A DNA stretch of 64,000 bases, from contig QZIT01000005.1 of assembly GCA_003599145.1 (NCBI GenBank), positions 127,961-191,960 on the forward strand, given 5' to 3'. Source of the stretch: Candidatus Woesearchaeota archaeon. Its GTDB lineage: Archaea; Nanobdellota; Nanobdellia; Woesearchaeales; UBA9642. Position 1 is the stretch's first letter. Each line of letters starts with the position of its first letter. Below, one piece after another: positions 3,881-55,452 of this stretch. The notes below the pieces were generated by a model, which was not told where the DNA came from, did not search any database, and saw nothing but the letters and a program-made list of their open reading frames with translations. The position numbers and the translations under genes are program-made.

Positions 3881-4015
3881 TATGCTGAAAAGACTTGATT
3901 TAAAAATATTTGCCAGAAAGCAAAAAAAACCAAAACAACAACAAAAAATGCAAAATAATCACTATAAAGTAATAAATATAGAAAAATTTATAAATAACTG
4001 CAGACAACAAAAACC

Positions 4016-4612: not shown

Positions 4613-4619
4613 AAACAAC

Positions 4620-6383: not shown

Positions 6384-7918
6384 GCATCCTTCACCACATA
6401 CTGATCTCGTTTAGGGCCTGTTGATACAACCAGAATATTTCCTTTGGTGAATTGCTCAAACTCTCTGAAGCTTCTCAGCAGGTCTGGAGGGAAATCAGAA
6501 AAATCTTTTGCATCAGAAATATTCCCACATCCTTCATAGATGCTGAAAACTGGTTGCATCGATTCTAAAAATCCAGGAGAGCGATTAAAGTCTGTATGCA
6601 CTGTTCCTGATGCATCTTCATAGCCGTAATTTATTTTAAACTCATCAACACCGTCAAGACAGTCTGCTTTTGTTAAAATGAAATGAGGGCCGTTGATGGA
6701 AACAGCATAGCTTGCCATCACTGCATCTGTCCATCCTGTTCTTCTTGGACGTGATGTTGTTGCACCGTATTCATATGCTGCTAATCTGATTCCAATACCC
6801 TGAAAGAATGGGTCCGAGCTGTTTGCAAGCTCAAGAACTCTTGTTCTGTTTTCTTTAATAAATTTTACCGTGTCTGATTTATATTTTTCCAATGCTGCTT
6901 CAGCATCTATAGTTCTTGTTTTTTGCAACCTTCTTATTTCGTCCAAATCTATGCTCATGTCTAAAAAAGTTTTTGCTTCATAAAACATGTCATGCTCTGT
7001 TCCTCCGGCACAATAATTTTCAGACGCAACTCCTCCCAATTCTGAAGGAAATGGCCCTCCTCCAACTCTCGTCATGAAAGGATATTTTACAATACCAAAA
7101 GTAATGTCCACATCTTCAGGAGAAAGTCCTACTCCATAGGCTAAACCGCGAATAGAACAATCTGAAGAAGTAACATAAGGATAGGTTCCATATTCTATGC
7201 TCAATCCCAATCCCTGTGCTCCCTCAAGCAGTATTTTTTTCCCTTGGCTGATAAAGTTTTTTAATTCCTTGTCTGTATCCTTGATAAACGGGTTTATTCT
7301 ATCGAGATGAGGCTGCAAGTCCGTTAGAAGTTTGTCAAGGTATGCAGAGACATCAGGAATTGCACCAGGAAAAAGGTTTGCAACTCTTTTCACATTCTTA
7401 TCCAATTGTTTGAGGAGTTTATCCCTATCTCCCAAAAGCATTTCAATGGTTATTCCTCTTCTTGCAGTTTTATCTGCATAGCAAGGTCCTATTCCCCTGC
7501 CTGTAGAGCCAATGCCTCCGTTAGATAAAGATTGGTTTTCAAGTTTATCTTCAAGAATATGATAATCAAAAACAACATGAGCATCTTTGCTTATCATTAA
7601 ATTATTATACGTTACCCCCGCTCTGTCAAGCATGTCTAATTCTTTTGTTAATGCGGAAAGGTCGATGGCCATGCCATTGCCCAACATATTTACTTTTCCT
7701 TCTTTGTCATAAAGAATTCCTGCAGGAATAAGATGCGTGATGATGCTTAAATCTCCGACTTCAATCGTATGGCCTGCATTTGCTCCGCCTGTTCCTCTTA
7801 CAATAACATCTGCCCACTGCGCAAGCAAATCTACAAATTTGCCTTTGCCTGTATCTCCAAATTGATTGCACACTATTGCAGCAATCTGTTTATCTTTTAA
7901 AAGAACATCAAGCGTCAT
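6380..7918 (-). CDS. purA: adenylosuccinate synthetase (long form with insertions)
   Basis: N-terminal GDTGKGK P-loop-like motif and GGANAGHT motif characteristic of AdSS. Confidence 0.85.
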   Translation of the reverse strand: MTLDVLLKDKQIAAIVCNQFGDTGKGKFVDLLAQWADVIVRGTGGANAGHTIEVGDLSIITHLIPAGILYDKEGKVNMLGNGMAIDLSALTKELDMLDRAGVTYNNLMISKDAHVVFDYHILEDKLENQSLSNGGIGSTGRGIGPCYADKTARRGITIEMLLGDRDKLLKQLDKNVKRVANLFPGAIPDVSAYLDKLLTDLQPHLDRINPFIKDTDKELKNFISQGKKILLEGAQGLGLSIEYGTYPYVTSSDCSIRGLAYGVGLSPEDVDITFGIVKYPFMTRVGGGPFPSELGGVASENYCAGGTEHDMFYEAKTFLDMSIDLDEIRRLQKTRTIDAEAALEKYKSDTVKFIKENRTRVLELANSSDPFFQGIGIRLAAYEYGATTSRPRRTGWTDAVMASYAVSINGPHFILTKADCLDGVDEFKINYGYEDASGTVHTDFNRSPGFLESMQPVFSIYEGCGNISDAKDFSDFPPDLLRSFREFEQFTKGNILVVSTGPKRDQYVVKDA

Positions 7919-9363: not shown

Positions 9364-9445
9364 CCAATGACAAGAACCAAAATGCTCTTATATAGTTTTC
9401 TATTTTGTTATTTTAAGATAAAATTAAAAAATAAGTATAAAAAAA

Positions 9446-11074
9446 TCAGTACTCAGGCATTCCGCCCATTCCCTGAGGAGGACTATCATTGCCTCCTGAA
9501 GTTCCTGCAATGACATCATCAATTCTTAAAATCATGACAGCAACTTCTGAAGCAGAGCTGATGGCTTGGGTTTTTATTTTTAAAGGCTCAATAACTCCTT
9601 CTTTCCATGCGTCCATGGTTTTTCCTGTGAATACATTGATTCCCTGCCATTTAAGATTTTTATCATGCGCTGCTTTTAATTCTGTCATGACGTCTATCGG
9701 ATCTAAGCCTGCATTTTCAGCCAATGTTTTGGGAATGACTTCCATAGACTCAGCAAATGCGTTAACTGCCAATTGTTCCCTGCCTGAAAGAGATTCTGCA
9801 TATTTTTTCAATTGCTTTGCAAGTTCCACCTCAACAGAGCCTGCTCCTGCAACAACTTTATTATTTTTTAATGCTGCCGCAACATCTCCAAGAGCATCAT
9901 CCATTGCTCTTTTAATTTCGTCAACAACATGCTCTGTGCTTCCATGCACTAATATAGTGACTGCTTTTGGGTTTTTGCACTCTCGAACATAAGTCATGGC
10001 CTCTTCATCCTTATGCTTTACTTCTTCAACAATACCTGCGTTTCCCAAATCTTTTACCGTCAATTCATCCAAATTAGTAACAATGCTTGCACCTGTCGCC
10101 TTAGCCAAATTATCCATGTCGCTTTTCTTTACTCTCCTGCATGCATAGATTCCTTTTTTAGCCAAAAAATGTTGGGCCATATCATCAATACCCTTTTGGC
10201 AGAAAACAACATTTGCACCAGACTGCTCTATCTTGGAAACCATTTTTCTGAGCATGTTCTCTTCCATATCCAAAAATGCCTGCATTTTTTCAGGGTCGCT
10301 TATCTGGATTTTCGTTTCAATCTCCGTATTTTTTATTTCAAGCGCAGAATCTATCAAGACAATTTTTGCATCTTTAATTTTTTTTGGCATTGCACTATGA
10401 ACTTTTTCTTTGTCAACAACAACGCCTGATATTAATTCAGAGTCTTCAACGCTGCCACCAACTTTTTTCTCTATTTTGATGGAATCCATGTCAAAAGAAT
10501 GTCCAGTGTTGCTTTTTTCCATGACTGATTTTACTGCTTTAACCGTTAAATCCGCCAATTGCTCCTTTGCATTCTCAGCGCCTTTTCCGGTCATTGCAGT
10601 CATGGCAATTTTTTTTAAGACATCAGCATTATCTTCAGTAATCGTTTCTGCTATTCTGTTTAAAATTTCCTGCGCTTTTTCATTGGCCATTCGGTAGCCT
10701 TTTGCCAAAACAGTAGGATGAATGTTCTGATCTAAAAGAGCTTCTGCCTTTGCAAGCAGTTCTCCTGCAAGAACAACGGCTGTAGTTGTTCCATCGCCAA
10801 CTTCATCTTCCTGCGTTTTTGCTATTTCAACAATCATTTTCGCAGAAGGATGCTCTATCTTAATTTCCTGCAAGATGGTAACGCCATCATTAGTTACGGT
10901 AATATCTCCTAAAGAATCAACAATCATTTTGTCCATGCCTTTTGGGCCTAGTGTTGTTCGTACTGTTTCTGCAACCATTTTAGCAGCCATAATGTTTGTT
11001 TTTTGCGCGTTCTTTCCTGTAGTTCTTTGCGTACTTTCAGGCAAGATAAATATAGGTTGTATTTGATTTGTCAT
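9446..11074 (-). CDS. ths: thermosome subunit (group II chaperonin)
   Basis: [27 protein letters not shown]-terminal GGMGGMPEY tail. Confidence 0.95.
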
Positions 11075-11145
11075 TATTCCACCCCGATAATTATTAGATT
11101 ATGATGAGAGAAAAGGGGGGTCTTTATATAATTTATGAAAAAAAA

Positions 11146-11850
11146 CTAAATGAGCACAAAATACAGTCTTCTTCTGTCTTTACCCTTGTTTTCCAGCTGG
11201 ATTATTTTTATCTGCCCTATTTCCTTCAAGTTTTTAACATGCGTTCCCCCACATGCCTGTATGTCTACGCCCTGAATGTCCAATACTCTGATGGTTTGTA
11301 TGGACGCATCAAAGGCTTTTCTTAATTTTACCAAAGAAGGAATTTGAAATGCCTCTTCTCTCGGCAGAAATTTTGAAATAACAGGAATATCTTTTCTTAA
11401 AATCTCGTTGGTTTTTTCCTCAAATCCCATCATTATATCTCTGTCAAAGCTTTCCAGAGAGAAATCAACTCTGCTTTTTTCTGTGTCTAATTGGTTTCCT
11501 GTAATTTCTGCTCCTGTTTCTTTATGAATTAAAGAGCTTAAGACATGGCTTGCCGTATGATATCTCATCAAAATATATCTTCTCTCCCAAGCTATGCTGC
11601 CTTTTACGGTTTGGCCTGCTTGTAATCCTTCTTTATCCACTTCATGGCTTATTTCACCGTTAAATTTGCCTACAAAAACAACCTGATAGGTATTGCCCTC
11701 TTCATCAGTCAATGTTCCTGTATCAAAAGGCTGGCCTCCTGAATTTGGATAGAATAATGTTTGTTCAAGAACAATAAATTTTCCATTGGCAGATTTTACG
11801 TTTGAAGTGAACTCCTTTTCATAGGGTTTTTCTAAATAAAGGGCTTGCAT
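11146..11850 (-). CDS. alaX: alanyl-tRNA editing protein AlaX-M
   Basis: HxxxH zinc motif HTASHVL and CGGTHV motif of AlaX/AlaRS editing domain; 234 aa. Confidence 0.8.
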   Translation of the reverse strand: MQALYLEKPYEKEFTSNVKSANGKFIVLEQTLFYPNSGGQPFDTGTLTDEEGNTYQVVFVGKFNGEISHEVDKEGLQAGQTVKGSIAWERRYILMRYHTASHVLSSLIHKETGAEITGNQLDTEKSRVDFSLESFDRDIMMGFEEKTNEILRKDIPVISKFLPREEAFQIPSLVKLRKAFDASIQTIRVLDIQGVDIQACGGTHVKNLKEIGQIKIIQLENKGKDRRRLYFVLI

Positions 11851-26099: not shown

Positions 26100-27704
26100 A
26101 TGAAAAACGTACTTATCTTTAGCGTTGTTTTACTATTATTGACAGGTTTTGTCATGGCTGTACCAAATGCAGTCATCAGCGCAAATCCAACCAATGGCGT
26201 TGCACCATTGACTGTTGCCTTTGACGGGACAGGAAGCACAGGCAACATAGTGAGTTATTCTTGGGATTTTGGAGACACAAGCACGGCAAATACTGCTGCA
26301 GTGAATCATCAGTTTGCCAATCCTGGAACGTACAACGTTGTATTAACCGTTACCGACAATGAAAGCGCTACGGATACGGCAACAGAAACAATAACCGTTA
26401 CACCTTCTGCAAGCTCAGGCATTGCCATTGAAGGAGATTTAGATTTCGGAGATGAAAACCAGGTTAGAGAAACAACTCTTACGAAAACAATCACTATCAA
26501 GAACACAGGTTCCAATACACTTACAGATATAGTACTCAGCTCAACAGCAGCAACCAAATACGGCGTAACCTTTAGCCCTGCAACGATTGCATCATTAAAC
26601 TCATTGCAAACTGCCCAGGTAGTTGTTTCCCTTACTGTTCCTGATGATCAGGATGCAGGACAGGCAAAAGCAGGCATTGTTGCTGCAACAGGAACTGCTT
26701 CTGGACAAACAGTTACCGCACAGAAAGATATTTTAGTCAGTGCAGAATCAAACTTGAGAATTGAAGATGTTGATTATGAAATTGATGGAGGAGATTCAGG
26801 GGATTTAGATAATGGAGAAGACTTTGACAGTGCTCCTGGAGACCAAATAACCTTAACCATCAAAGTTGAAAATACGTTTAGCGACGACATTGACATTGAA
26901 GATATAACCGTTACCGTTGAAGGAGAAGGCGATGTTGATGTTGATGAAGAAGAGAATATTGATACGTTAAGAGACGATGACTCAGATACCGTCACCATAA
27001 CCTTTGATGTTGACTCTGATGCAGACGAAGATGAATACGACATCGACATAACGGTTGAAGGAGAAGACGAGAATGGTGCAAGCCATGATGACCAATGGAC
27101 CATAACCGTCAATGTTGAAAAAAAGACGCACGACATTCAAATCATCAATCTCGAATTGAGCAAGACAACCGTTACCTGTGAAAACAGCATAACCCTTGAA
27201 GCAGAATTGAGCAACGAAGGAACCAAGGATGAAGGAAGCGTTGTTATTGAAGCAGAATCTGCATTGTTTGACTGGAAAGGAAGACTGGTCAATATAGACA
27301 TTGATGAAGGCGATGAATACACGGCAAGATTTACCATTGCACTTCCAAAAAACCTTGAAGAAGGCGAATACCCAATCGATGTTACTGCATTTTACAAGCC
27401 AGATGAAGAAACAGATACTCAGTCAGTAAGCTTTACTGCAAACGGATGCAACCCTGAACCTATAGTGCAAACGCACATGGTATGCAGAAGCAATGCATGT
27501 GTTGAAGTTTCAGGTTCTGGCAATGACGAATGCCTTTTGAACAGCGATTGCATTGTTGAAGAACCAGAATTCCCAGACGGAAATGTTGTCTATGGCAATT
27601 CAGGACAGGCAATTCCTAACTGGATGCTCCTTGCATTGTTGGGAGTTGGCGTTTTAATTGCAGTCGTCTTGATTATCGTCTTGCTTGTACGATTGGCAAG
27701 ATAA
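26100..27704 (+). CDS. cell-surface protein: signal peptide, PKD domain, D/E-rich region, C-terminal TM anchor
   Basis: PTNGVAPLTVAFDGTGS...YSWDFGDTS...HQFANPGTYNVVLTVTDN is a PKD domain; C-terminal WMLLALLGVGVLIAVVLIIVLLV TM helix. Confidence 0.8.
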   Translation: MKNVLIFSVVLLLLTGFVMAVPNAVISANPTNGVAPLTVAFDGTGSTGNIVSYSWDFGDTSTANTAAVNHQFANPGTYNVVLTVTDNESATDTATETITVTPSASSGIAIEGDLDFGDENQVRETTLTKTITIKNTGSNTLTDIVLSSTAATKYGVTFSPATIASLNSLQTAQVVVSLTVPDDQDAGQAKAGIVAATGTASGQTVTAQKDILVSAESNLRIEDVDYEIDGGDSGDLDNGEDFDSAPGDQITLTIKVENTFSDDIDIEDITVTVEGEGDVDVDEEENIDTLRDDDSDTVTITFDVDSDADEDEYDIDITVEGEDENGASHDDQWTITVNVEKKTHDIQIINLELSKTTVTCENSITLEAELSNEGTKDEGSVVIEAESALFDWKGRLVNIDIDEGDEYTARFTIALPKNLEEGEYPIDVTAFYKPDEETDTQSVSFTANGCNPEPIVQTHMVCRSNACVEVSGSGNDECLLNSDCIVEEPEFPDGNVVYGNSGQAIPNWMLLALLGVGVLIAVVLIIVLLVRLAR

Positions 27705-40390: not shown

Positions 40391-41539
40391 TTATTCGTGA
40401 ATCAGCGAAGTTAATTTTTCAAGCTCTTTTTTGAATACGAACCTTTTTTTGTCCAAGTCTGTGAATTTTTTTTCTAAATCACCAACGTAGCCTTTGATAT
40501 CTGCATTTTTGGAGATTAAGTCAAAAGCAGTTGCCTTTTTAAGCAGAAAATCCATTTCTGTTTTCAGGCCGTTTCTGTCAGCATCAATCTGCTGTATAAG
40601 CTTATCAACTTCTGCTTTGCGCTCAAAAAACTTTTTGAATTTCAGGGCTACTTCTCTTGCTGCAGCCTCGTCTTTTTCTATTTTAGTTTTGGTTTCCTCA
40701 ACTTTCTTCACTATCTTTTCCTGAATATCATTAATTTTCTGCTGCTGTTCGTTGCTGAGCTGCATCAATGGCGCAATTTTCCTGCTTTTTCTTTCTTCGA
40801 TGTCTTTCTCTATTTTTTGCGCATACTCTTCAAGCTCATCAAGCATTTTATTGCTTTCTTTCATTGCCGATTCTTCAACGTCGATTTTTTTTCTGATGGT
40901 TTCGATGATAGACGTGAGGGCATTGAATCGCTGTTTTAATACCTGCTCGTTTTCTTCAAGGCTTTGCATTTCTTTTTTCTGCAGTGCAATTTTCTGTTCC
41001 TCTGCTTTAATGCCTTTCAGCACTTCCCTGAACCTCTTTTCCTCAACATCAACCTGTTCATGGGAAGCGTCGATAATTTTTTTGTACTCCAGTTTCTGTC
41101 TTGCAATATCTTCATCGATTTTTGATTTTAAATCCTGAAATTTCTTCAACTCTTCAAGCTCTTTCTCTACTTTGTCCATATCTGCGCCAATACCTGTTTT
41201 CAACCCTGAAAATTCATTCTTAACATTGTCAAACCATTCTGATTCTTTCTCAAGCGATTTCATGGACGTTTCAACTTTTCTGATAAAGGATTCTTTTTTG
41301 GTATCATATTCCTTTACTTTAGTCGCCACCTCTGTTTTCGTGAGTTTTTTTGGCTTGAGCCATACTTTAGAAAGGCTGTATTCAACAGTAATGACGCCTT
41401 GCTCTTCAAGAAAGTCTGCCCACTCCTGGACAACAATGGTGCTGACTCCTAATTCTTTTGCTGCTTCATCAAGAGAAACTTTGTCATATTTGTTTACGAG
41501 ACTTACTAATTTATCTACACCGGTCTCTATATCTTTCAT
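40391..41539 (-). CDS. N-terminal wHTH + long coiled-coil protein
   Basis: First about 60 aa wHTH-like (LDEAAKELGVSTIVVQEWADFLEEQGVI), remainder heptad-rich K/E coiled coil, 382 aa. Confidence 0.5.
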   Translation of the reverse strand: MKDIETGVDKLVSLVNKYDKVSLDEAAKELGVSTIVVQEWADFLEEQGVITVEYSLSKVWLKPKKLTKTEVATKVKEYDTKKESFIRKVETSMKSLEKESEWFDNVKNEFSGLKTGIGADMDKVEKELEELKKFQDLKSKIDEDIARQKLEYKKIIDASHEQVDVEEKRFREVLKGIKAEEQKIALQKKEMQSLEENEQVLKQRFNALTSIIETIRKKIDVEESAMKESNKMLDELEEYAQKIEKDIEERKSRKIAPLMQLSNEQQQKINDIQEKIVKKVEETKTKIEKDEAAAREVALKFKKFFERKAEVDKLIQQIDADRNGLKTEMDFLLKKATAFDLISKNADIKGYVGDLEKKFTDLDKKRFVFKKELEKLTSLIHE

Positions 41540-42744: not shown

Positions 42745-43194
42745 TTATCGCACAGTGGTAAGCAAAGCTCCCTGTGCAACATGGCTTGCTGTTCCGCCAA
42801 CCCGGGTATAGTTAATAAGAATATTTACAGTGCTTTTTGAGCTTTGAGTAAACGCAGGACTTGCAAAGGTGCAGGTAAAATTCGCATTTTGGCTTATGAA
42901 AATAACTTGAGGAGCATTGCAATTCACGGTAAAAATGCCTGTGTCATCATTCGAAACGCGTATAGAGTTCACCGTAATATCCCGCTCAAAGCCGTTTCTC
43001 AGCTGCAGCTTTACCTGAGTTTGATTTAAAGAGTATTCAGTACAGGGCAATTCTGGAATAGTGTCACAGTAATCTTTTTGCAGGGTATTGACATCTAAAA
43101 ATCCAAAGTAGACAATGGCGCCAATGGCAGTTATTACTACCAGCAATGCCCAGCCATAGGTTGTCATAAATTCCAAAGATGCCTGTGCTTTCAT
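42745..43194 (-). CDS. archaeal type IV pilin-like protein (class III signal peptide)
   Basis: MKAQASLEFMTTYGWALLVVITAIGAIVYFG: K-A|Q cleavage context, Glu at +5, hydrophobic helix. Confidence 0.7.
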   Translation of the reverse strand: MKAQASLEFMTTYGWALLVVITAIGAIVYFGFLDVNTLQKDYCDTIPELPCTEYSLNQTQVKLQLRNGFERDITVNSIRVSNDDTGIFTVNCNAPQVIFISQNANFTCTFASPAFTQSSKSTVNILINYTRVGGTASHVAQGALLTTVR

Positions 43195-43260: not shown

Positions 43261-43788
43261 TTATGGAACGTTGATATACACTTCCCCTTTTTGCTGTTTA
43301 GGATAGTTCACGTCAGTGTAATAGTTGATGGTGAACTCGAATTTTGTTTTTCGTCCAGCTTCAAGAAACGATCCAGTTGTACAGTCAATTTCCACTTCTG
43401 TTTCTGCGTTAATAGCAAACGTTGCAGTACCTGCTCCTGCCAAATTCGTAGCTCCAAAGAAGGTAGTACATGTTCCCAATCCACCTGCGCCTGTTGGAGG
43501 ATCATTAATGACAACATCGTCAATAGTTACCTGTTTTCCCAGCTTGTTTTTAAGCAAAAATTTCACATTATAGCTTCCGCCATCTGCAGGTGCTACTATA
43601 TTAACACTCGTAGCAAGCATCTTGTCCTTATCGCACAAGAATTCAATACCGAAATTGCATCGTTCAGAAACAAATGCATCGGGCCTTAATACTCCAAAAT
43701 ATGCCAATGCTCCAATCATGACCAGAATAACTAAAAACGCCCAACCATAGGTTGTCAAAAATTCCAAAGCTGCCTGCGCTCTTTTCAT
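43261..43788 (-). CDS. archaeal type IV pilin-like protein (class III signal peptide)
   Basis: MKRAQAALEFLTTYGWAFLVILVMIGALAYFG (start re-set from the track's 43923 to this Met); paralog of the adjacent pilin. Confidence 0.7.
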   Translation of the reverse strand: MKRAQAALEFLTTYGWAFLVILVMIGALAYFGVLRPDAFVSERCNFGIEFLCDKDKMLATSVNIVAPADGGSYNVKFLLKNKLGKQVTIDDVVINDPPTGAGGLGTCTTFFGATNLAGAGTATFAINAETEVEIDCTTGSFLEAGRKTKFEFTINYYTDVNYPKQQKGEVYINVP

Positions 43789-44657: not shown

Positions 44658-45050
44658 ATGGCAGAATTCATGATACTTCCTCCTTTGGTAATAGGAGTTA
44701 TTCTTGGTATTGTTGAATTATCCTTTGTTCATGCAGATGAACGAGGCATGAGCTGGCTAACCCATGGACTGCACGCCATTCCCGTCATGTTTATCTTTAT
44801 TTTTATCAGCATGAATATTACTTGGGCATTAAGCCTTGCAAATTTGCATAATACCTTATGGATTTCCATTGGAGTAAGAGCATTAATAGGCATCATCGCC
44901 ATGGTAAAAATAGGCTCTGCTGCTGCAATTGCAGGAAGAGTTGGCGAGAAAAAATTTCACGTGTTGATTATTGGCCTGCTGGTTATTGCAGCTCCGTATA
45001 TCTGGGATTACCTGTTAAAAGGTCTTGTGGGCAAATATTTGCCATTCTAA
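44658..45050 (+). CDS. hypothetical membrane protein (4 TM)
   Basis: Hydrophobic 130 aa. Confidence 0.5.
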   Translation: MAEFMILPPLVIGVILGIVELSFVHADERGMSWLTHGLHAIPVMFIFIFISMNITWALSLANLHNTLWISIGVRALIGIIAMVKIGSAAAIAGRVGEKKFHVLIIGLLVIAAPYIWDYLLKGLVGKYLPF

Positions 45051-45092: not shown

Positions 45093-46871
45093 ATGAGATA
45101 TACCTCTACAGTGAAAGCTGCAACTATCGCATTCATGCTTCTTTTATTCATTCCAGGAGTGCTTGCAAACATGTTTGATGACATGTTACGGCCATTTCAG
45201 GGAGTTGATTTTGGAGCAACCTATCAAACCTATGCGCCTTTTATTGATGGATTGCTGTTCTTTTTCATTTTCTATGGATTATCGAAATTTGTTTTCCATA
45301 AAAAATTTGGCGCTCAAGCAAACATGATCGGGATAGGCATTTCTCTTGCACTGGCATTTTCAGCAGCAGTGTTTGAATTGCGCACTGGCTTCAGAATGGG
45401 AGATTTAGGACCTATTGCTATTTTGCTGTTTTTTGGATTTATTTTTTATACGGTATACACCTTAACAAAAGGCTTAGGCAGCGGAAAGTGGATAGCTTTT
45501 GGCGTTACCTTTCTGTTATTATTTGGCATACTGCAAAACATTTTAGGAAGCTTTTTCCAGCAGAATGGGTGGATTCAAGCGTTAATGGGCATCATGCTCA
45601 TTGCAAGCGTTATAGGAATTATTGTTGGATTAGTTGGATTATTCAAAGGAAAAGGCAGTTCATCAAACAATGTAAATACAGAAGTAAGGCAGGAAAGAGA
45701 ACAGATAAGGAATGCAGATAAAGAACAGAAAAGACAGGTGCAGCAGTTTATGCAAGATGAAAATAAACTACAGCAATTAAACCAGCACCTTGCAAATTTA
45801 GAAGCAGCAGATACGCAATTAGCCCAGCAAATACAGGTAGATACCAGCGATGAATATAGAGAATATGAAGATATAAGAAAAATAGTGCGAGATATGGGCT
45901 GGATGCTGCAAAATCACGTTTTGCCTGCCTATAAATATGCTGAACAAAAACAAAGAGAACTGCAAAAAGGCAATATTCTTGACCCAAATCAAATGCAGCA
46001 GTATCAAACAGGCATTCAAAATGCATTTACCTACATTAGAAATATCCTTACGAGAATCAACCAATCTTTGGGAACCTACAACGCACGATTGATACAACTG
46101 CAGGAATCTCTTTATAAAAAAGACAAGGAAGTTGAACAGCGCAGAATTGCCTTTAGAGAAGAGCAGAGAGATGAATTAGGACAGATGGGTGTTGATGTCC
46201 AATTAACCGAATTAGGAAAAGATGCCCAGAAGTTGTTTAAAGAATATATGAATATTAAGAACAAGATTAAAAAAATTGCAGGAATTTTAGCAGTAGTCCT
46301 GAGAAGCAAAAAGTACGGGCCAGAAGATGATGCATCTGCATTCAGAAAAGCAGAACAATATTCTATTGATGCCAACAGATTAATACAAACCATCAATGCA
46401 GAACAGCAGAATGTCATTGAAGGAGAAAGAAGCATTAAAAAAGATGTTGACATGATGTGGAAATTGATGAATGCAGAAGGTGAAAATGTAAGGCAGCAGG
46501 AAGCACTTTTAAAATCTGCATTTGATGTTTCGCAGGATTTAGCAGCTGCATTAAACCAGCCTATTAGCCAGAAAATGGTTGACCAAGTGAAAAATAAACT
46601 GATGGAACTGTACCAAAAAACAGAAATTGCAGGAACAAAATTAATGGAAGAAGTAGACATCGTAAAAAGAGTGCAGGAAATCAAGCAGGATAAGGAAAGC
46701 ATGGAGCAAAGAATTAAAATTCTTGAAGACAAATACAAGAATTATCTCGCAAGATTGTTTAAAGACTTTGAAAGATATGAAGATATTCTTAAGGGTGTCC
46801 AGAATGCTGCAGGTGCAAACGCTCAACAGGTACAACAAAACAACATGATAGGCCAACCGCCTGTTTCTTAA
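45093..46871 (+). CDS. membrane-anchor module (about 190 aa, 4-5 TM) + about 400-aa coiled-coil domain
   Basis: N-terminal module homologous to that of 47724..48851 (shared FIDG-containing block); rest Q/E/K-rich heptads. Confidence 0.6.
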   Translation: MRYTSTVKAATIAFMLLLFIPGVLANMFDDMLRPFQGVDFGATYQTYAPFIDGLLFFFIFYGLSKFVFHKKFGAQANMIGIGISLALAFSAAVFELRTGFRMGDLGPIAILLFFGFIFYTVYTLTKGLGSGKWIAFGVTFLLLFGILQNILGSFFQQNGWIQALMGIMLIASVIGIIVGLVGLFKGKGSSSNNVNTEVRQEREQIRNADKEQKRQVQQFMQDENKLQQLNQHLANLEAADTQLAQQIQVDTSDEYREYEDIRKIVRDMGWMLQNHVLPAYKYAEQKQRELQKGNILDPNQMQQYQTGIQNAFTYIRNILTRINQSLGTYNARLIQLQESLYKKDKEVEQRRIAFREEQRDELGQMGVDVQLTELGKDAQKLFKEYMNIKNKIKKIAGILAVVLRSKKYGPEDDASAFRKAEQYSIDANRLIQTINAEQQNVIEGERSIKKDVDMMWKLMNAEGENVRQQEALLKSAFDVSQDLAAALNQPISQKMVDQVKNKLMELYQKTEIAGTKLMEEVDIVKRVQEIKQDKESMEQRIKILEDKYKNYLARLFKDFERYEDILKGVQNAAGANAQQVQQNNMIGQPPVS

Positions 46872-46910
46872 GCGAAACATTTATAAATAAATTAACTACT
46901 ATTAAGTAGT

Positions 46911-47525
46911 ATGTCCTTAGATTACACGCTAGAACATGTAGAAAGGCCGTTTAGACCTACGCCTAGCTATAGAAGCGGCAGAGGCCTCGGAGATTTGGTT
47001 GCAAATGCCTATACAGGACTTAGCCATGCAAGACAGAGTTTTAGCGACGGTTTCTATATAGCTACCGATAAAATTCCCTACTTATTAAAACCAGTAAACT
47101 ATGCTGCTAAATTTTTTAGGGATGCTGTATTATTTGGTGTTTTGCCTGGTGCAGTCCAGATAAATCTTGCCCATAAAAGAAGAGATCCTATCAATAAGTA
47201 TTTCTACAGGTCATGGACAAAAGGATTTGCAGAAAATATGTTCGATATTTACTGGTCGAGCAAATTAGCCACTGCTCCTGCAGCTGGAATTTTTGGGTCT
47301 TTGTTGCACGGCTTTGGCGCAGGATATTTACTGTATACATACTGGGGCATGGCAGAATTAGGGGCAAGAATGGCCATTCATTTAGCAACAGGAAAGCCTG
47401 TTGGCTTATTAGTTCCTAATCTTTTGTACAGAGGGTATAAAGGCATTAAAAAAACCTACAACAGCATTTTTAACAAGCATCATTCAACGTATGCTCCTTC
47501 TTGGCGAACAATGCAGTTTGCATAA
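46911..47525 (+). CDS. hypothetical protein
   Basis: 204 aa, G/Y/A-rich, no motif. Confidence 0.4.
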   Translation: MSLDYTLEHVERPFRPTPSYRSGRGLGDLVANAYTGLSHARQSFSDGFYIATDKIPYLLKPVNYAAKFFRDAVLFGVLPGAVQINLAHKRRDPINKYFYRSWTKGFAENMFDIYWSSKLATAPAAGIFGSLLHGFGAGYLLYTYWGMAELGARMAIHLATGKPVGLLVPNLLYRGYKGIKKTYNSIFNKHHSTYAPSWRTMQFA

Positions 47526-47582
47526 CAAAAACCGTGCAATCTTCGCAGTGCGCAGTTTTTAATCATGTGGTTTTTGGAACAA

Positions 47583-47627
47583 AGAAACCCTAAAGGGTTT
47601 CTGGTTCAAGAAATGCTATGCATTTCT
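47583..47627 (+). terminator. two consecutive perfect hairpins (GAAACCCT-AA-AGGGTTTC and AGAAATGC-TAT-GCATTTCT)
   Basis: Seen directly, about 60 nt after the stop of 46911..47525. Confidence 0.3.
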
Positions 47628-47723
47628 TTGAATTGAAAATTGCTTGAGAGTCTAAAACCTCTAATATGCAATTTTCAATAATTACCAAAAAGCTTATAAA
47701 TAAATCATCCAATAAATAGGTGA

Positions 47724-48851
47724 ATGAAGAAGATATCAGTATATTTAGCAGTACTGCTCCTTTTTTCGTCTTTAGCATTGGCGTTTGACCCTTTAACAAC
47801 CATTATAGATCCTTTTAGGGAAATAGATTTTGCATCGTTCTATTTAGGAGCGTATTATTTCATTGACGGCATTATCTACTTGATGATTTTTTTAGGGTTG
47901 GGAATGTTTGTTTTCAAGAAATATTACCAGCAAAATGCCAAGCCTATTGTCATAGGTGTTGGTTTAGCTTTAACTTTCGCAGCGACATATTTTGAATACC
48001 TAACAGGATTTAATTTAGGCCAATTGTATCCTATAGCTGCCATCATCATCTTATTTATCATGATTTTCTTGATTTATGAATTCATGCATTCGTTCATCAA
48101 TGACGTTGGAGCATCTGCTTCCATCGCAATGCTTTTGGGAGCAGCAATGCTGATGAGCATCTTCACAGGCATTTATGATTGGTTAGTCCAGAATTCTCCT
48201 TTAGGCGCTGCGTTAGTGCATTTGGCAGTTGTCTTTGCGTTTGTTTTATTGATTATCAGGTTATTCAGATTATTTGGAAATGGACAGAATGCTGGAACAC
48301 CTGGACAACAAGGACCTGCAGGTCCCCAAGGACCACCTGGAAATCAAGGAATACCAGGACAAGGAGGCGGACCAGGAATGCCTGGACAGCCAGGACCTAT
48401 TGGACCGCCAGGGCAAGGAGGAGGAAACCCGCCAAATCCACCAGGACAACCATTAACAGTGCAAATTGCAGTGCCTGGAAGAAACGGACAGCAATTCCAG
48501 CAAGGGCAATTGCCTCATCTTGAAGCAGTTATTCGAGGAGGAACATCTCCTTATTATTTTAGATGGACAATCAATGGTCAGCAGGCAGGACAAGGGCAAA
48601 CTAACGGACATGCACGCACTCAAATCAATCCATTGCCCCCTGGAAGATATCACGCGATTATTGAAGTGACTGATACAGCAAACCATATTGCTGCAGACCA
48701 AAGAGATTTTGTTATTACAGGAGGTAATCCTTTGCAAGTACAAGTGCAACCTATCACACATCCCGTAGCACCAAACGGAAACGTTACGGTTAACCTTAAT
48801 ATTCAAGGAGGACAGCCTCCTTATACTATACAACCAATCATCAATCCATAA
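47724..48851 (+). CDS. membrane-anchor module + collagen-like Gly-X-Y repeats + Ig-like (GxPPY) repeats; probably the N-terminal part of a split gene
   Basis: 17 uninterrupted G-X-Y triplets ([57 protein letters not shown]); [10 protein letters not shown] and [10 protein letters not shown] Ig-like repeat motifs. Confidence 0.6.
48282..48451 (+). repeat. collagen-like G-X-Y coding repeat (DNA level)
   Basis: gga/ggc-cca/cct triplet periodicity across about 170 nt. Confidence 0.6.
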
Positions 48852-48852
48852 C

Positions 48853-51657
48853 ATGGCATACAAAATAAAAGACGACGGAAAACTTCCCAAAGAGGGAAAC
48901 GCAGAGGTAGATATTAATTTAAGTAAATTTAACAATATCCGTGCGGATAAACCAAATGCTTTGGTATTTAGAGTTACTGACAGCGCAGGGAATGTTGCCG
49001 TAAGCGATCCTGTTTATTTTACTATTAGACAGCAGTTTTCTGTAAAAATAGTCCATCCAAAAGGAGAATATCCTGAAGGAGAGCTTGTTCCTTTAAGAGC
49101 AGAGATAAATCAGGGAATGTCTCCGTATACTTATGAATTCTTTATTGATGGAAATGCTTTAGGACCAAGAAGACAGACTAATGATGCAATCATTCAAAGT
49201 CAACTGCCTCCTCAATTATTTGCTCCAAATAACTTAGGACCTGGAAAACATGAACTGACCATAACCGTTGAAGACCATCAGGGAGCAAAAACAGCAGACA
49301 GAGCAGAATTTGAAATAAAAACAGGAACGGCAATGGACTTTGATATTATTTCTCCGACTAAAAAAGAGTGGAATGAAGGCGAAGAAATTCCCTTTGCAAT
49401 TCAGATTAAAAATGGAAAGGAACCGTATGCAATATTTGCCTATGTCAATAGCGAGACAAGAACTAGTGAGAACGCCATTTTTGCCAAAATTGATATTCAA
49501 GGGCTTACGGACAATACATTCGCTTTAGAGCATGCGTATGCAAAAATCCTTGACATGCTGAAGAGAGGAGTTCTTAAAAGAGGAAAGGAATTTGTCGTTT
49601 ACATCGAAGTGAATGACGGCGTCAATAGCCAAGAAAATAAAGCAAGATTCCAGAGAATAAAGCCTATTACCTTAACGATTGCTCCTTCTGGCAAACTCAT
49701 GATTAATGTAGTGGCTCCTGCAGAAAATCAGCTCATACCTCAAAACGAACCTATATCTTTTGACTTCACCATTGTCAATGGACAGCCTCCTTATCAATAT
49801 GTTATCAGGGCAAGAAACCAAAGAAGAAGCATTGACTTCAGCAAAGAAGGAGAAAACATAACAAATCCTCATTTCGATTTCGCCATAGCGCACAGCTTTC
49901 CTGAAGGTGATGAACGATTGACTATTGCCGTCATTGACAGCTTAAAAAGAACTGTGCAGGTTGACCGAAACATCAAGATTGTTTCTCCTGTTGATATTCT
50001 TACCGTGAATATTGCGTCTCCAACAGAGGAACAGGTAGTGCAAAAAGAATTGCCTGTTGACCTAGAATTCACTGTTCTAGAGGGCAAAGAACCGTATACC
50101 TGCGAACTTTTGATTGTTGGTGAGGGCAGAAGAGAAGTGTATAAGAAAAGCTGGAAAGCAAACAATGCTCTAGTCCACGAGCAAGTATTATTGACAACCT
50201 ATGAAGGAAAAGCAGAAATTCTTTTAAGAATTACCGATGCAAATCAGAGAAAAGGCATTGCGCGCAGAAAGTTTGTTGTTTTCAGCATGTATAAGCCAAC
50301 ACCACCCTTATTGCCTCCTCCTCCAGGAACAGACGATACTATTCCCCAGGACCCTGATCAAAAAAGTCCTTTCAGAATTACCGATGTAAAAAGCGGAGCA
50401 GCAATACAAAAGCTGCTCAAAGACTATCAGGCAACAGAAGAACGATTGCGAAAACATAGAGCATATCTAGATTCATTCAGCAGCGACGAAGAACTCATGC
50501 AAGACCCTGCGCTGCAGGTTTATTTGAAAAGAATAATCGAAGCAGAGCAAAGAGTGCAGCAGGGTTATGAACTCATAAGGGGAAAAAGATATGCTGAAGC
50601 AGAAAATCAGCTTAAAATCATCCAAAGAATACTTGGTTTTCTTGACGACAGTTTAGAAAAAGTAAAGAGCATCGTGAAAGCGTTCAGAGAAACCAAAGGA
50701 CCGGAAGAGTTAGTCAGGGCATTGCAGCAGATTGAAGAAAAATTGAATTATCATCAAAAATTAGTAACAGAAGTTGAAACGCACGAAGACATAAAAAAGA
50801 GCCATGTAGTCATACAATACGCACTAAATTTAAGGGATGCATTTACCAAATTAAGAGAGTGCAAAGAACTGGTGCGAGGCAAGAATTACCAGTATGCCCA
50901 AAGAAGGTTCAGGCTTTTACTGCATCGCGTTCAATATCTCGACAGGGCTGAGCAAAAAATAAGAGTAATACTGCAGGCCAAGCTGACACAACAAATTGAA
51001 GAACTGACAAATGTAAAGCTCACTCAAAGAGATCTATCAAAAGCAGTGAATAAAATCATACAACAACTTACGTTTTATGGGACGCTTTTCTCTGAATTGA
51101 CCAGAGAGCATCCTGAAGTAACAAGCAATGAGCTTTATGCAAGTTTAAGAACAAACATCGACCAAGGATTGAGATTGGCACAGGAAACAAGAGAACTTAT
51201 TGCACAAAATAATTTTGAAAAAGCAAAAGACAACATAGGACAATTCAGGGGAAGACTCCAGTATATTCAAGAACTGTATGACCGGATTCTCAATGGCATT
51301 GCCTTACCAGAAGCATGGAACGGGAATGTTGCAGATTTAGAGGAAGAATTAAGAATTAATTGGCAAGGCTTGGGATCAGTAAAAAGATTAATCACTGATT
51401 TACGCAATAAATACAGAGACATTGATAGCAATCCTTCATTTAAAACGTTCACCAGATTATTTGATGACGAAGCAGAGCCAAAAGTAAGAAGAGCGAGAGA
51501 TTTACTTGCTGAAAAAAGATATGCTGAAGTACGAAAATACCTCGATGACTTGGTTCCTCTCTTTGACCAGCTGAATACATTCTATGAGATGTTCATGAAG
51601 CAGATTAATCCTCGACATACACCGAGCAACAGGCCTCCGTTCGTCAAGAAAAAATAA
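48853..51657 (+). CDS. large protein: 5 or more Ig-like (SPYTY/EPYA/PPYQY) repeats + about 450-aa alpha-helical C-terminal region; no signal peptide of its own
   Basis: Starts 1 nt after the stop of the collagen-like ORF in the +1 frame; shares the GxPPY-type repeat with it. Confidence 0.55.
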   Translation: MAYKIKDDGKLPKEGNAEVDINLSKFNNIRADKPNALVFRVTDSAGNVAVSDPVYFTIRQQFSVKIVHPKGEYPEGELVPLRAEINQGMSPYTYEFFIDGNALGPRRQTNDAIIQSQLPPQLFAPNNLGPGKHELTITVEDHQGAKTADRAEFEIKTGTAMDFDIISPTKKEWNEGEEIPFAIQIKNGKEPYAIFAYVNSETRTSENAIFAKIDIQGLTDNTFALEHAYAKILDMLKRGVLKRGKEFVVYIEVNDGVNSQENKARFQRIKPITLTIAPSGKLMINVVAPAENQLIPQNEPISFDFTIVNGQPPYQYVIRARNQRRSIDFSKEGENITNPHFDFAIAHSFPEGDERLTIAVIDSLKRTVQVDRNIKIVSPVDILTVNIASPTEEQVVQKELPVDLEFTVLEGKEPYTCELLIVGEGRREVYKKSWKANNALVHEQVLLTTYEGKAEILLRITDANQRKGIARRKFVVFSMYKPTPPLLPPPPGTDDTIPQDPDQKSPFRITDVKSGAAIQKLLKDYQATEERLRKHRAYLDSFSSDEELMQDPALQVYLKRIIEAEQRVQQGYELIRGKRYAEAENQLKIIQRILGFLDDSLEKVKSIVKAFRETKGPEELVRALQQIEEKLNYHQKLVTEVETHEDIKKSHVVIQYALNLRDAFTKLRECKELVRGKNYQYAQRRFRLLLHRVQYLDRAEQKIRVILQAKLTQQIEELTNVKLTQRDLSKAVNKIIQQLTFYGTLFSELTREHPEVTSNELYASLRTNIDQGLRLAQETRELIAQNNFEKAKDNIGQFRGRLQYIQELYDRILNGIALPEAWNGNVADLEEELRINWQGLGSVKRLITDLRNKYRDIDSNPSFKTFTRLFDDEAEPKVRRARDLLAEKRYAEVRKYLDDLVPLFDQLNTFYEMFMKQINPRHTPSNRPPFVKKK

Positions 51658-52989: not shown

Positions 52990-53538
52990 GTGGCAATGGT
53001 TTCTTTGGTTGTCGTTGCCTTTTTTGGAGTAACCGAAGGAGCAGCAATAAGAAGAATAAGTGTTCCTTCACAGCCAGTGCAAGAAACTACAGCACCAGTT
53101 TGCTCTCTTTGCGGAGATGTCAATGGAGATAGGACTGCGTTTAATATTCAGGATAAAATGATTTTTGATAGTTATGCAAAGAATAATGGACCAGCACCTT
53201 CCTGCATGGCCCAAGCAGACTTGGACGGAGATGGCGTTGTCGGCAGTCTTGTAGACATAAGAATGTGGGAAGATGCCTATGCAGGCCGCATTACTCCTAC
53301 CTGTCAGCAAACTCCATTAACAGCAATAAACTGCCAAAAATGCGGAGATCTCAATGGAGACAGTATCGTCAATATCGTAGATGAAATGCTGATGGATGAC
53401 TTTGTTTGGAGAGGCGGAGCAGCGCCTGCATGCTTAAGCAAGGCTGATTTAAATCAGGATGGCATTATCAGCGACACTTCAGATGCGCTTTTATTGAAAA
53501 GCTATCTTTGGAAAGCAGGGCCTGAACCTGTTTGCTGA
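52990..53538 (+). CDS. secreted protein with four dockerin/EF-hand-like calcium-binding repeats (GTG start)
   Basis: GDVNGDRTAFNIQD, ADLDGDGVVGSLVD, GDLNGDSIVNIVD, ADLNQDGIISDTSD...LLKSYLWKAG; N-terminal hydrophobic segment. Confidence 0.55.
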   Translation: MAMVSLVVVAFFGVTEGAAIRRISVPSQPVQETTAPVCSLCGDVNGDRTAFNIQDKMIFDSYAKNNGPAPSCMAQADLDGDGVVGSLVDIRMWEDAYAGRITPTCQQTPLTAINCQKCGDLNGDSIVNIVDEMLMDDFVWRGGAAPACLSKADLNQDGIISDTSDALLLKSYLWKAGPEPVC

Positions 53539-53547
53539 GGTGCAACA

Positions 53548-53853
53548 ATGGAACAAAAAATGATGTACTATAGTTTAATAGCAGTAGTAGGCATGGTTGC
53601 CGTGGTCAGTTTAGTAGTCATACTTGTTGGAGCGAAGCAAAACTCATTAGCGGCAAATGCTGTCGCTCCATTAACCTATGAACAAATAGATCCTGATGGA
53701 GATGGGCCACTTCCGGTTTCCCGATGTGCCAGAGCATATGCGAGATATTATGACTCAACAACAGATGAAAACTGTGTTGACACGTACCTTATCTGCGGTG
53801 ATGTTGGCATGTTTAGGTTTTCACACGATTGTTACTCTGCAAAAGACTATTAG
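53548..53853 (+). CDS. small secreted/membrane Cys-containing protein
   Basis: TM/signal MMYYSLIAVVGMVAVVSLVVILVGA; DPDGDGP motif; 5 Cys. Confidence 0.4.
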   Translation: MEQKMMYYSLIAVVGMVAVVSLVVILVGAKQNSLAANAVAPLTYEQIDPDGDGPLPVSRCARAYARYYDSTTDENCVDTYLICGDVGMFRFSHDCYSAKDY

Positions 53854-53989: not shown

Positions 53990-54511
53990 ATGGCATTAAG
54001 CAAGTACTTACGATTTGCAGCTGCGTATGATTCTTTAGCAGATATTTGTGGAAACGAACCTCCAACAAAGCAACTGGTAATAGCCCATATGGCGAGAAGA
54101 TTTGCGGAAGAAGAATTTAAAATGCGTTCTGGAACCACTACGGATAGAAAGGCTACCGAAGAAGCATATGTAAGCGCCATGCTCCAAAGAGAAGGCCTTG
54201 TAACAACAGGCGTTGGTTATGGCGTAGCTTTGCCTCATGGAGTAGTTGAAGTGCAGAGTGGTGTTTTACAGCCCCAGCTTGATTTGGGAGTGTATATCAT
54301 TCCAGAATTAGATTGGGAATCTTCTGACAAAAAACCTGCTCAGCTCATCTTTGCCACGTTATGCCCCAGAGATATCATTGGGGGTCATTTAAACGTTCTG
54401 GCAAGGTTAAGCTACACTTTAAAAACTGAAAAAATGAGAACCTTAATAAGGGATTCGGTAATTTCAGGAAATGAACTAGAATTAAAAAAGCTTTTAGACT
54501 ATCAACCTTAG
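53990..54511 (+). CDS. PTS EIIA type-2 (PtsN/fructose-IIA-like) domain protein, standalone
   Basis: LQREGLVTTGVGYGVALPHG (compare REKMGSTGIGNGIAIPHG with phosphorylatable His) and PAQLIFATLCPRD...HLNVLARLS match the EIIA-2 fold signature. Confidence 0.65.
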   Translation: MALSKYLRFAAAYDSLADICGNEPPTKQLVIAHMARRFAEEEFKMRSGTTTDRKATEEAYVSAMLQREGLVTTGVGYGVALPHGVVEVQSGVLQPQLDLGVYIIPELDWESSDKKPAQLIFATLCPRDIIGGHLNVLARLSYTLKTEKMRTLIRDSVISGNELELKKLLDYQP

Positions 54512-54548: not shown

Positions 54549-55106
54549 ATGAAAGAAGACGATATTCACAGAGAAATCTTAAAAGAAGCCCTTGCTGAGA
54601 AAGAGGAAAAGCCATCAAAAGTATGGCCTTATATTTGGGTAGGCATAGGCTTATTGATTATTATTTTGCTTATTTTAGCCTATACAGGAGGCATCTCAGG
54701 CATTTATTTCATCAAAGGAAGAACTGCAAGCGGAGAAATTCAAAATTTTCAAGTGGATTTTGAAGAGGGCAAGGTCATTTTTGAGCCTTCTGTCTATGAA
54801 GCGTTAAAAAACCAGTTTTTGGCAAATTACACAGCGGAATTTAAAGTCTGCCTATTGGGAGAAAAGCAGGGAAAGAACTATATTATAACAAGTTTTTACA
54901 CACCAATCATTTTCTCGCAGGATTTTACCAGTGTACACAGCGTACAGTGCAACAGCTCAACCATCATTCCCTTGCACAGCCATCCTGTAGATAGTTGTTT
55001 ATTTTCAGATCAGGATAAGGCATCATTTAAAGCATTTAAAGAGGTAAATCCTGATGCGATCTATGGATTGATGTGCTCGGCAAATCGATTTTCATTCATA
55101 AAATGA
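54549..55106 (+). CDS. membrane-anchored JAB/MPN (JAMM) metalloprotease-like protein
   Basis: N-terminal TM helix; LHSHPVDSCLFSDQD fits the JAMM motif H-x-H-x7-S-x2-D. Confidence 0.55.
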   Translation: MKEDDIHREILKEALAEKEEKPSKVWPYIWVGIGLLIIILLILAYTGGISGIYFIKGRTASGEIQNFQVDFEEGKVIFEPSVYEALKNQFLANYTAEFKVCLLGEKQGKNYIITSFYTPIIFSQDFTSVHSVQCNSSTIIPLHSHPVDSCLFSDQDKASFKAFKEVNPDAIYGLMCSANRFSFIK

Positions 55107-55152: not shown

Positions 55153-55452
55153 TTAGAAATAGCCTTTCATGCCTTTGAAATATGTTTTGATTTGGACATA
55201 GCATGATTTCAACTCTTTTTTTCCTAAAGCAGTAAGGCTATAGTGCTTTTTTCTGCCGTCCTTTTTCCACGTTACTAGTTTTTGTTTTCTGAGCCTTTTG
55301 AGCGTAGGATAAATCGTTCCTGGCGTTAAAACCTCTCCTTTGCGCATGCCAATGCTTCTGGCAAGTTCATCACCGGAAAACGGTTTTTTTGACAATTCGT
55401 GCAGAATGAAAAAAGACAAAAAACCCTTGATTTCTATTTTTGCTTTAGGCAT
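55153..55452 (-). CDS. PadR-family transcriptional regulator
   Basis: GFLSFFILHELSKKPFSGDELARSIGMRKGEVLTPGTIYPTLKRLRKQKLV. Confidence 0.85.
   Translation of the reverse strand: MPKAKIEIKGFLSFFILHELSKKPFSGDELARSIGMRKGEVLTPGTIYPTLKRLRKQKLVTWKKDGRKKHYSLTALGKKELKSCYVQIKTYFKGMKGYF

Follow-up and report, generated by a model that had tools for sequence, protein, structure and literature searches.

A conserved N-terminal membrane module carrying exchangeable rod-like tails in Woesearchaeota and Nanoarchaeota

The window analysed here, 64,000 nt of the genome of a Candidatus Woesearchaeota archaeon (GCA_003599145.1, contig QZIT01000005.1, positions 127,961-191,960 of the forward strand), contains three open reading frames (ORFs), O1, O2 and O3, that appear from their sequences to represent two ancient paralogues, O1 and O2+O3, of an undescribed family of archaeal proteins (DPANN: Woesearchaeota/Nanoarchaeota). 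An N-terminal membrane module of about 190 residues, which we call the root module, is common to both, and the tails that follow it are of entirely different kinds. An earlier reading of the same DNA (the original prediction) had located the three ORFs correctly and had attributed them to a small-genome archaeon, which agrees with the DPANN origin of the 576-kb contig; it also proposed that, in a modular family, a single conserved membrane module at the N-terminus is joined to downstream domains with no relation to each other. That architecture is borne out, in a family far larger than the two copies then seen (675 clusters). The features needed for what follows are:

45093..46871, + strand: O1, an ORF of 592 aa
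45093..45662, + strand: O1 root module (aa 1-190), with signal peptide, acidic outer segment PF.G.DFG..Y and five hydrophobic helices
45093..45167, + strand: predicted O1 signal peptide (aa 1-25), with a K/R tip, a 12-residue hydrophobic core and a P-x-V-x-A cleavage-type site
45663..46871, + strand: O1 tail, a short Gly/Ser linker and ~390 aa of Q/E/K-rich amphipathic helix, ending ...GQPPVS
47724..48851, + strand: O2, an ORF of 375 aa
47724..48293, + strand: O2 root module (aa 1-190), paralogue of the O1 module
48853..51657, + strand: O3, an ORF of 934 aa

Homology of the N-terminal ~190 residues of O1 and O2 was the central claim of the original prediction, which also named compositional bias of transmembrane (TM) segments as the finding that would overturn it. 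BLASTP with composition-based statistics aligns O1 31-107 with O2 27-103 at 44% identity over 77 aa (E 6e-16), and a global alignment gives 32% identity over the full ~193 aa. That the similarity could be mere hydrophobic or compositional bias of unrelated membrane segments is suggested by the strong hydrophobicity of both regions and by word-indexed searches, which were swamped by generic hydrophobic words (a 2-sequence profile found only one relative, P0001, and a 49-sequence profile found none). However, the Smith-Waterman score of the two modules is 219, compared to 44±8 for whole-sequence shuffles of O2 and 69±14 (maximum 118; z = 10.8) for shuffles within 6-residue windows that keep the hydropathy profile, and two unrelated TM-rich proteins from the window score only 39-45. 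Given also the composition-corrected E value and the presence of non-hydrophobic conserved motifs in hundreds of proteins, bias is rejected as an explanation and retains only a vanishing probability. The 64-kb window holds no third copy of the module. O1-type modules are 43-46% identical among themselves and 28-32% identical to O2O3-type modules, and the duplication is therefore older than these genomes. The O2 module groups with those of P0004, P0007, P0008 and P0009, all of which head single long proteins.

To take a census of the family, a two-module profile was searched exhaustively against 1.84 billion cluster representatives. This returned 675 proteins (clusters) at E<=1e-3, of which 305 pass E<=1e-10 and 17 pass E<=1e-30. 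Among the 150 matches listed, the module is N-terminal (residues ~1-200) in 149, and the proteins are 120-1416 aa long if P0068 is left out. The latter (2693 aa, with ankyrin and NACHT matches) matches profile positions 157-194 only and was discarded as a false positive. All loci with organism names belong to Nanoarchaeota, Nanoarchaeia or Woesearchaeota; one copy binned as 'Zixibacteria' adjoins an archaeal Orc1/Cdc6 gene, and Orc1 adjoins the module copy of locus L003, an archaeal chromosomal context. A locus scan with eight close sequences gave five genome loci, one metagenome locus and no viral locus, and 2.9 million viral contigs (IMG/VR) yielded no relative. On a White Oak River sediment contig (L007), three module plus coiled-coil paralogues stand in direct tandem (3860..4984, 5100..6359 and 6439..6636), and tandem duplication within the family appears to be common.

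Residues 1-190 of O1 and O2 have no match at curated cut-offs in Pfam-A, NCBIfam or PHROGs; a ZapG-like match (16.9 bits vs a cut-off of 33.5) is a TM-plus-coil artefact. A 49-member module profile gave a best E value of 0.073 against PDB sequences, the module has no match in BFVD, and no structural match to a known membrane-protein fold was obtained over most of its length. Family members that carry names are all annotated 'hypothetical', and a literature search retrieved no description of the family. The root module of ~190 residues is previously undescribed, an undescribed family built on a familiar anchor-stalk-head design, and it could become a defined domain family.

The anatomy of the module was derived from a family profile of 99 sequences. 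Its start looks like a Sec-type secretory signal peptide, for which we looked for a positive n-region, a hydrophobic core of 7-15 residues and small residues at -3 and -1: in the profile, the frequency of K/R at positions 2-5 is 0.5-0.8, the hydrophobic core spans ~12 residues, and the residues at -3 and -1 are mostly V (77%) and A (76%), respectively; cleavage is predicted. Next comes a conserved acidic segment of 24 residues (..LD..L.PF.G.D[FI]G..Y..Y..FID). Hydropathy analysis gives six hydrophobic segments each in O1, O2 and P0001, with the helices after the signal peptide at 50-68 (H2), 78-95 (H3), 108-125 (H4), 134-151 (H5) and 160-184 (H6). Across 150 sequences the Asp that marks the outer end of H2, D52, never varies; Y44 (99%), F100 (95%) and L87 (92%) are almost as constant, and the H3-H4 loop has the conserved motif E..TGF.LG.LGP. 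The most conserved residues (D52, Y44, the PF.G.DFG..Y segment and the E..TGF.LG.LGP loop) are predicted to cluster on the outer face of the module. An AlphaFold2 (AF2) model of the O1 module, built with a 49-sequence alignment, is all helical (mean predicted local distance difference test (pLDDT) 85.6, predicted template modelling score 0.64), and merges H2, the loop and H3 into a single helix of 51 residues (48-98), which as modelled would be incompatible with a bilayer. We regard H2 and H3 as a hairpin, giving five crossings, because several members have Pro/Gly insertions in the H2/H3 loop (P0021, P0022 and P0029; for example ...KNAAPGVTSNRKESK... and ...KSTDGKPMRESK...) and because a few covariation pairs tie residues 34-49 to 84-94, a weak signal (mutual information over 137 sequences, noisy).

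Downstream of the module the family diverges. The O1 tail is predicted to be a coiled coil, since its 3.5-residue hydrophobic periodicity exceeds z = 2 against shuffles in 30 of 50 windows of 42 residues; its composition is Q13 E9 K9 L8 A8. It is orthologous to the tails of P0005 (E 6e-9), P0011 and P0006, gives only generic sub-threshold TM-plus-coiled-coil matches in family libraries (ZapG-like, Rz-like spanin, PdsO), and has no significant match to the O3 tail, in line with the original view that the downstream domains are unrelated and that O1 carries a coiled coil. Coiled-coil tails (>50% K/E/L/R/Q/A) occur in 46 of the 110 members with a tail of at least 150 aa. The other tails usually open with a Gly-rich or G-X-Y run or a P/T-rich linker, followed by β-sandwich domains and often by a helical end domain. 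An oligomerising type of rod starts within ~10 residues of the last helix. A Pfam scan of the tails of 31 long members without coiled coils found CarboxypepD_reg in five of them, as well as fn3, SpaA-like, SdrD_B, bMG3 and Ig-like domains and, in P0020, a papain-type C1 peptidase; no ATPase, helix-turn-helix or metabolic-enzyme tail was found in the 31. A Pro-rich C-terminal peptide (...LPPQP, ...TPPRP, ...PPVPPAP) ends 31 of 119 tails, for example those of P0005, P0010, P0013, P0014, P0018, P0029 and P0082, and may be a C-terminal docking motif; being present in only about a quarter of the members, it was not retained as a feature of the family.

The second paralogue is split over O2 and O3. 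The Ig-like repeats that follow the collagen-like segment had been noted to run on into O3, and the treatment of O2 and O3 as separate genes has to be revised: they are one gene, with six Ig-like repeats in all, cut inside the second. The relevant features are:

48294..48428, + strand: collagen-like segment (O2 aa 191-235), 15 uninterrupted G-X-Y triplets right after the last membrane helix, located by regular expression
48450..50286, + strand: six Ig-like β-sandwich repeats with a G-x-(P)PY motif, located by motif register, spanning the O2/O3 boundary with repeat 2 cut
48849..48853, + strand: break point, with the TAA stop at 48849..48851, an extra C at 48852 and then the O3 ATG in the +1 frame
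50383..51642, + strand: four tandem helical repeats of ~100 aa (O3 aa 511-620, 610-719, 719-828 and 821-930)

That there is one gene is shown by the G-x-(P)PY register, which passes unbroken through the ORF boundary, repeat 2 beginning in O2 and ending in O3 (MAYKIKDDGK...ALVFRVTDSAGNVAVSDPVYFTI), and by four orthologues that are uninterrupted: P0004 (973 aa), P0007 (1071 aa), P0008 (989 aa) and P0009 (768 aa). In all four the root is followed by a G-X-Y or Gly linker, then by Ig-like repeats and a helical end, and all four read through the equivalent of the break (GG.PPY....LNG...). The DNA at the break is CCA TAA C ATG GCA, and removing one A restores the frame (...IINPYMAYKIK...). In an AF2 model of the P0009 repeat region, three separate β-sandwiches are seen (pLDDT 70-96), and the position of the O2 stop is in the second of these, past the strand that comes after its GGKPPY motif, with more strands downstream. 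The extra A may stem from an assembly error or be a real lesion, a recent inactivation; if real, the one-base change would leave this genome with a membrane-anchored stub (O2) and a remainder that lacks a leader (O3). GenBank annotates the halves as hypothetical proteins RJQ16959.1 (O2) and RJQ16960.1 (O3), an annotation that should be corrected to one gene.

The repaired O2+O3 product would have ~1310 aa, comprising the root (aa 1-190), the 15 G-X-Y triplets, the six Ig-like repeats, a Pro-rich hinge (O3 aa ~479-510) and the four helical repeats. The G-X-Y run is rich in Pro and matches Pfam Collagen (PF01391) below threshold (15.5 vs a cut-off of 27.2, E 0.015); such runs lie at the same place in P0004, P0007, P0016, P0019, P0020-22, P0027 and P0047. 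The Ig-like repeats score below the Pfam gathering cut-offs throughout (PKD 15.0 vs 23.5, SprB 16.9 vs 28, Big_13 20.8 vs 27, and DUF4625 likewise), and a Foldseek search with the P0009 model returned generic tandem Ig/fn3/MG arrays (complement MG domains, MpIBP adhesin repeats, SbsB) with E values down to 3e-11. The helical tail noted earlier in the 934-aa ORF resolves into the four repeats listed, which are related to each other by pairwise BLAST (r1-r2 E 7e-13, r2-r3 E 1.6e-7, r1-r4 E 7e-5) and each have a conserved core [ED]L[IVL][RA]..[RNK][YF]; they match nothing in PDB sequences or in the other tails of the family. Their size is reminiscent of three-helix-bundle repeats.

The two paralogues belong to a cassette that is conserved in three genomes, namely that of the window, a Nanoarchaeota metagenome-assembled genome (L002) and a 6.6-kb contig (L011). 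The order is a 130-aa membrane protein, the O1-type gene, a gene for ~205-250 aa and the O2O3-type gene. In the window the two additional genes are:

44658..45050, + strand: 130-aa membrane protein with four hydrophobic segments and a VHADERG motif, upstream of O1
46911..47525, + strand: middle gene, 204 aa, lying between O1 and O2; its orthologues are defined by position and poorly conserved

L002 is also syntenic for a XerA-like recombinase, a JAMM-motif membrane protein and PadR. In the window, L002, L011 and a further locus, L012, the O1-type gene is immediately preceded by that of the 130-aa protein. The protein has a strongly conserved motif (...VHADERGM.WL.HGLHA.P...), is 78% identical in L002 and has 93 homologues, the named ones all being hypothetical proteins of Woesearchaeota or Nanoarchaeota, and no Pfam, NCBIfam or PDB match. 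As an obligate partner of the family it had to be discarded, being found without a module gene within 9 kb in three distant genomes (L008-L010). The middle gene has counterparts of 208 aa in L002 (24% identity, E 5e-4) and 248 aa in L011 (phmmer E 7e-6), and its 204-aa product has no family match. At locus L013 the gene following the 130-aa homologue (9428..11356) encodes a 642-aa protein of the same build as the family, with a signal peptide, five helices, a Gly linker and a coiled coil; it was not accepted as a member, hhalign aligning the signal peptide only (probability 55%), and represents either extreme divergence or replacement by an analogue. The five window genes (the 130-aa gene, O1, the 204-aa gene, O2 and O3) are C4573_02750 to C4573_02770, each a 'hypothetical protein' in GenBank, the last four with accessions RJQ16957.1-RJQ16960.1.

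What could such proteins do? Physical contact with other cells is essential to DPANN archaea, and we know of almost no DPANN envelope proteins that have been characterised. Our favoured reading, in which confidence and doubt are about evenly balanced, is that the proteins are membrane-rooted surface fibres. The root module would fix the protein in the cytoplasmic membrane and would probably oligomerise, because the last helix leads straight into a coiled coil or a collagen-type G-X-Y run; runs of the latter type form trimers. From the root an exchangeable rod-and-head tail would project, consisting of the ~390-aa coiled coil in O1 and of the collagen-like stalk, six β-sandwiches, Pro-rich hinge and four helical repeats in O2+O3. 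These tails would lie outside the cell, as fibres or struts contacting the S-layer, a substrate or a host cell. We infer the adhesive or structural role, like the oligomerisation and the outside location, from the architecture. A surface fibre or strut is preferred because CarboxypepD_reg, fn3, SpaA-like, SdrD_B, papain C1, collagen-like and P/T-linker tails are typically extracytoplasmic in prokaryotes. To our knowledge, hardly any collagen-like or tandem-Ig protein of prokaryotes is known to be cytoplasmic, with the exception of phage fibres before release. With its one recognisable root and swappable rods and heads, the family makes it easy to search metagenomes for candidate attachment or envelope-strut proteins.

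The topology of the module points the other way, and the surface location given in the original prediction is therefore putative, with the tail domains speaking for it and helix parity and the positive-inside pattern predicting a cytoplasmic C-terminus. The proposed TM topology check yields a signal peptide and five well-separated, strongly hydrophobic helices; this parity does not automatically place the tail outside, and in fact predicts an outside N-terminus and an inside tail. The charge pattern agrees with an inside tail at every loop of the 99 sequences, and also alternates perfectly in O1, O2 and P0001 individually. K/R residues are found where the inside is predicted (~3.3 per sequence in loop 69-77, 75% K/R at K126 and ~1.7 in residues 179-188), and K/R residues also follow the last helix (I-[KR]-L-F-x-L-F-[KG]); where the outside is predicted, in segments 26-49 and 152-157 and at E95, the module is acidic. 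The covariation pairs and the Pro/Gly loop insertions favour the H2/H3 hairpin and with it five crossings, and the single 48-98 helix of the AF2 model gives no outside tail either unless the positive-inside rule is reversed. N-glycosylation sequons are not enriched in the tails (186 observed, 192 expected); as location indicators, the sequon and Cys contents of the tails were set aside as uninformative. A C-terminal anchor or extra TM segment that could fix the topology was sought in the tails, and none was convincing. An outside tail would thus need one strongly hydrophobic segment to be off the membrane, or a reversed positive-inside rule. By domain types alone the tails would be extracytoplasmic, and by charge distribution they are predicted to be cytoplasmic: either the orientation rules for archaeal membrane proteins fail here, or collagen-like and Ig-like rods are cytoplasmic.

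The second possibility would give the same root module cytoplasmic tails, with its outer face binding the S-layer, a lipid or a partner cell and the rods forming an internal membrane-attached skeleton or tether in cells of very small size, with a function like that of spectrin or filamin. It would explain the topology, the charges and the sequon counts; in addition, most tails are K/E-rich coiled coils, O3 has its four ~100-aa helical repeats, and O3 lacks an export signal yet has an intact 934-codon frame with its own ATG. The extracytoplasmic domain types weigh against it, as does the failure to find a typical cytoplasmic domain in the scanned tails, and we consider it possible but distinctly less probable than surface fibres. 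If the tails are cytoplasmic, DPANN archaea would have a membrane-rooted internal skeleton of collagen-like, filamin-like Ig and spectrin-like rods, coupled to the envelope or host through the outer face of the root, an unprecedented use of 'extracellular' building blocks inside a prokaryotic cell. Less likely still, and in our view rather doubtful, is that the module is itself the functional part (a channel, transporter, sensor or enzyme using D52) with the tails as accessory scaffolds or regulators, which would make 'anchor' the wrong word. The strongest conservation does indeed lie in the module and not in the tails (the invariant D52, Y44, F100 and the fixed loop motif), close relatives have a small conserved membrane protein encoded nearby, and there are near-tailless members (P0015, P0033, P0044, P0067, P0090, P0092, P0099 and P0143; 168-198 aa), some of them maybe truncated. 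However, short metagenome contigs are the main source of these short members, which may be fragments, only one polar residue is invariant, and the module has no sequence or fold similarity to any transporter, channel or enzyme family. An origin from a virus or mobile element, the genes encoding spike or tail-fibre-like proteins, could be read from weak PHROG matches to tail fibre and Hoc-like decoration proteins (E ~1e-3) and from a tyrosine recombinase nearby in the window, L002 and L004. The PHROG matches, however, cover G-X-Y and Ig-like stretches only, the recombinase shares 65% identity and its gene neighbourhood between genomes, in the manner of chromosomal XerA, and the housekeeping neighbours, flat GC content and absence of relatives among the viral contigs make such an origin very improbable.

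The surroundings of the cassette are those of an archaeal chromosome, as confirmed by genes for TFIIE-alpha, a nucleoside phosphorylase, a histidine phosphatase, the XerA-like recombinase, PadR, the thermosome, aCPSF1/FttA, IMP dehydrogenase, adenylosuccinate synthetase and lyase, and PRPP synthetase. GC content is flat at ~0.37-0.41 over the region around O1-O3, and an Rfam scan of the window found no RNA. Most neighbours are housekeeping genes; the O1-O3 locus is not an envelope island, and the proposal of a dedicated cell-envelope or attachment locus is not supported. The two pilin genes on which that proposal drew are present nearby:

42745..43194, - strand: pilin-like gene 1, with a class III-type signal motif
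43261..43788, - strand: pilin-like gene 2, with a class III-type signal motif

Their products are paralogous (33% identity, E 9e-18), start with MKAQASLEFMTTYGWALLVV... and MKRAQAALEFLTTYGWAFLVI..., and have the signal motifs KAQASLEF and RAQAALEF; both show the short basic leader, Q-x-[SA]-x-E-[FY] and hydrophobic helix of archaeal type IV pilins, and Pfam recognises neither. The pair lies on the opposite strand behind the unrelated phosphorylase gene, outside the conserved cassette, and no link to the root-module family was found. Pilin genes were not seen at the corresponding place of related loci, though no systematic look was taken, and L002 has pilin-like ORFs a few kb upstream.

Several other genes of the window are of separate interest. 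At 26100..27704 (+) a 534-aa protein has bona fide PKD domains (PKD_4, E 3e-18) and is a separate surface-type protein lacking the root module. A 382-aa protein (40391..41539, -) consists of a winged-helix-like N-terminal segment and ~320 aa of coiled coil with weak SMC-type matches, its N-terminus being 50% identical to a 150-aa protein of L002 (767..1219). A small secreted-looking archaeal protein with type I dockerin repeats (52990..53538, +; Pfam E 1e-11) is followed by a 101-aa membrane-anchored protein (53548..53853, +). Next is a protein with a phosphotransferase system (PTS) EIIA_2-like domain (53990..54511, +; E 1e-16), found here in a DPANN archaeon with other PTS components unseen nearby. 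Finally, a membrane-anchored protein with an HSHP...S..D (JAMM-like) motif (54549..55106, +) adjoins the PadR regulator (55153..55452, -), a pair that is also kept in L002 (42% identity).

Among the known systems closest in design are SlaB of Sulfolobales and tetrabrachion of Staphylothermus, membrane-fixed archaeal envelope proteins that have a Sec signal peptide, a long coiled-coil rod and β-sandwich domains. As in O1 and O2+O3, a membrane-fixing element is combined with a rod and β-sandwiches. No sequence similarity to either was detected, and both are held by a single C-terminal helix, whereas the present proteins have an N-terminal five-helix module that forms a conserved family in its own right; the outside location of the tails here is putative. 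In Streptococcus Scl1/Scl2 and Bacillus BclA an uninterrupted G-X-Y run serves as a trimeric stalk between attachment point and distal domains; O2 has such a run, of 15 triplets. In those proteins attachment is by a C-terminal LPXTG or to the exosporium, whereas here the stalk follows a polytopic membrane module; the matches of O2 to collagen-like surface families in NCBIfam and Pfam are weak and far below the cut-offs (12.5 bits vs 325 and 15.5 vs 27.2).

The string of separate β-sandwiches in the P0009 model resembles the Ig-like, PKD and SprB repeats of prokaryotic adhesins, with MpIBP (region II) among the best Foldseek matches, and the G-G-x-P-P-Y motif of the O2+O3 repeats is similar to that of SprB and He_PIG-type repeats; the sub-gathering Pfam scores set them apart from PKD, SprB and Big_13 as a divergent type. 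By analogy only, YadA-type trimeric autotransporter adhesins also have one conserved anchor and, over a large family, freely exchanged stalk and head modules; their stalks are oligomeric coiled coils. Their anchor is a C-terminal β-barrel in a bacterial outer membrane, in contrast to the N-terminal α-helical module in the archaeal cytoplasmic membrane. Should the tails be inside, the pertinent comparison would be the spectrin/filamin membrane skeleton, an architectural analogy to eukaryotic proteins with no sequence or demonstrated fold relation, in which rods of ~100-aa helical and Ig-like repeats are tied to a membrane protein.

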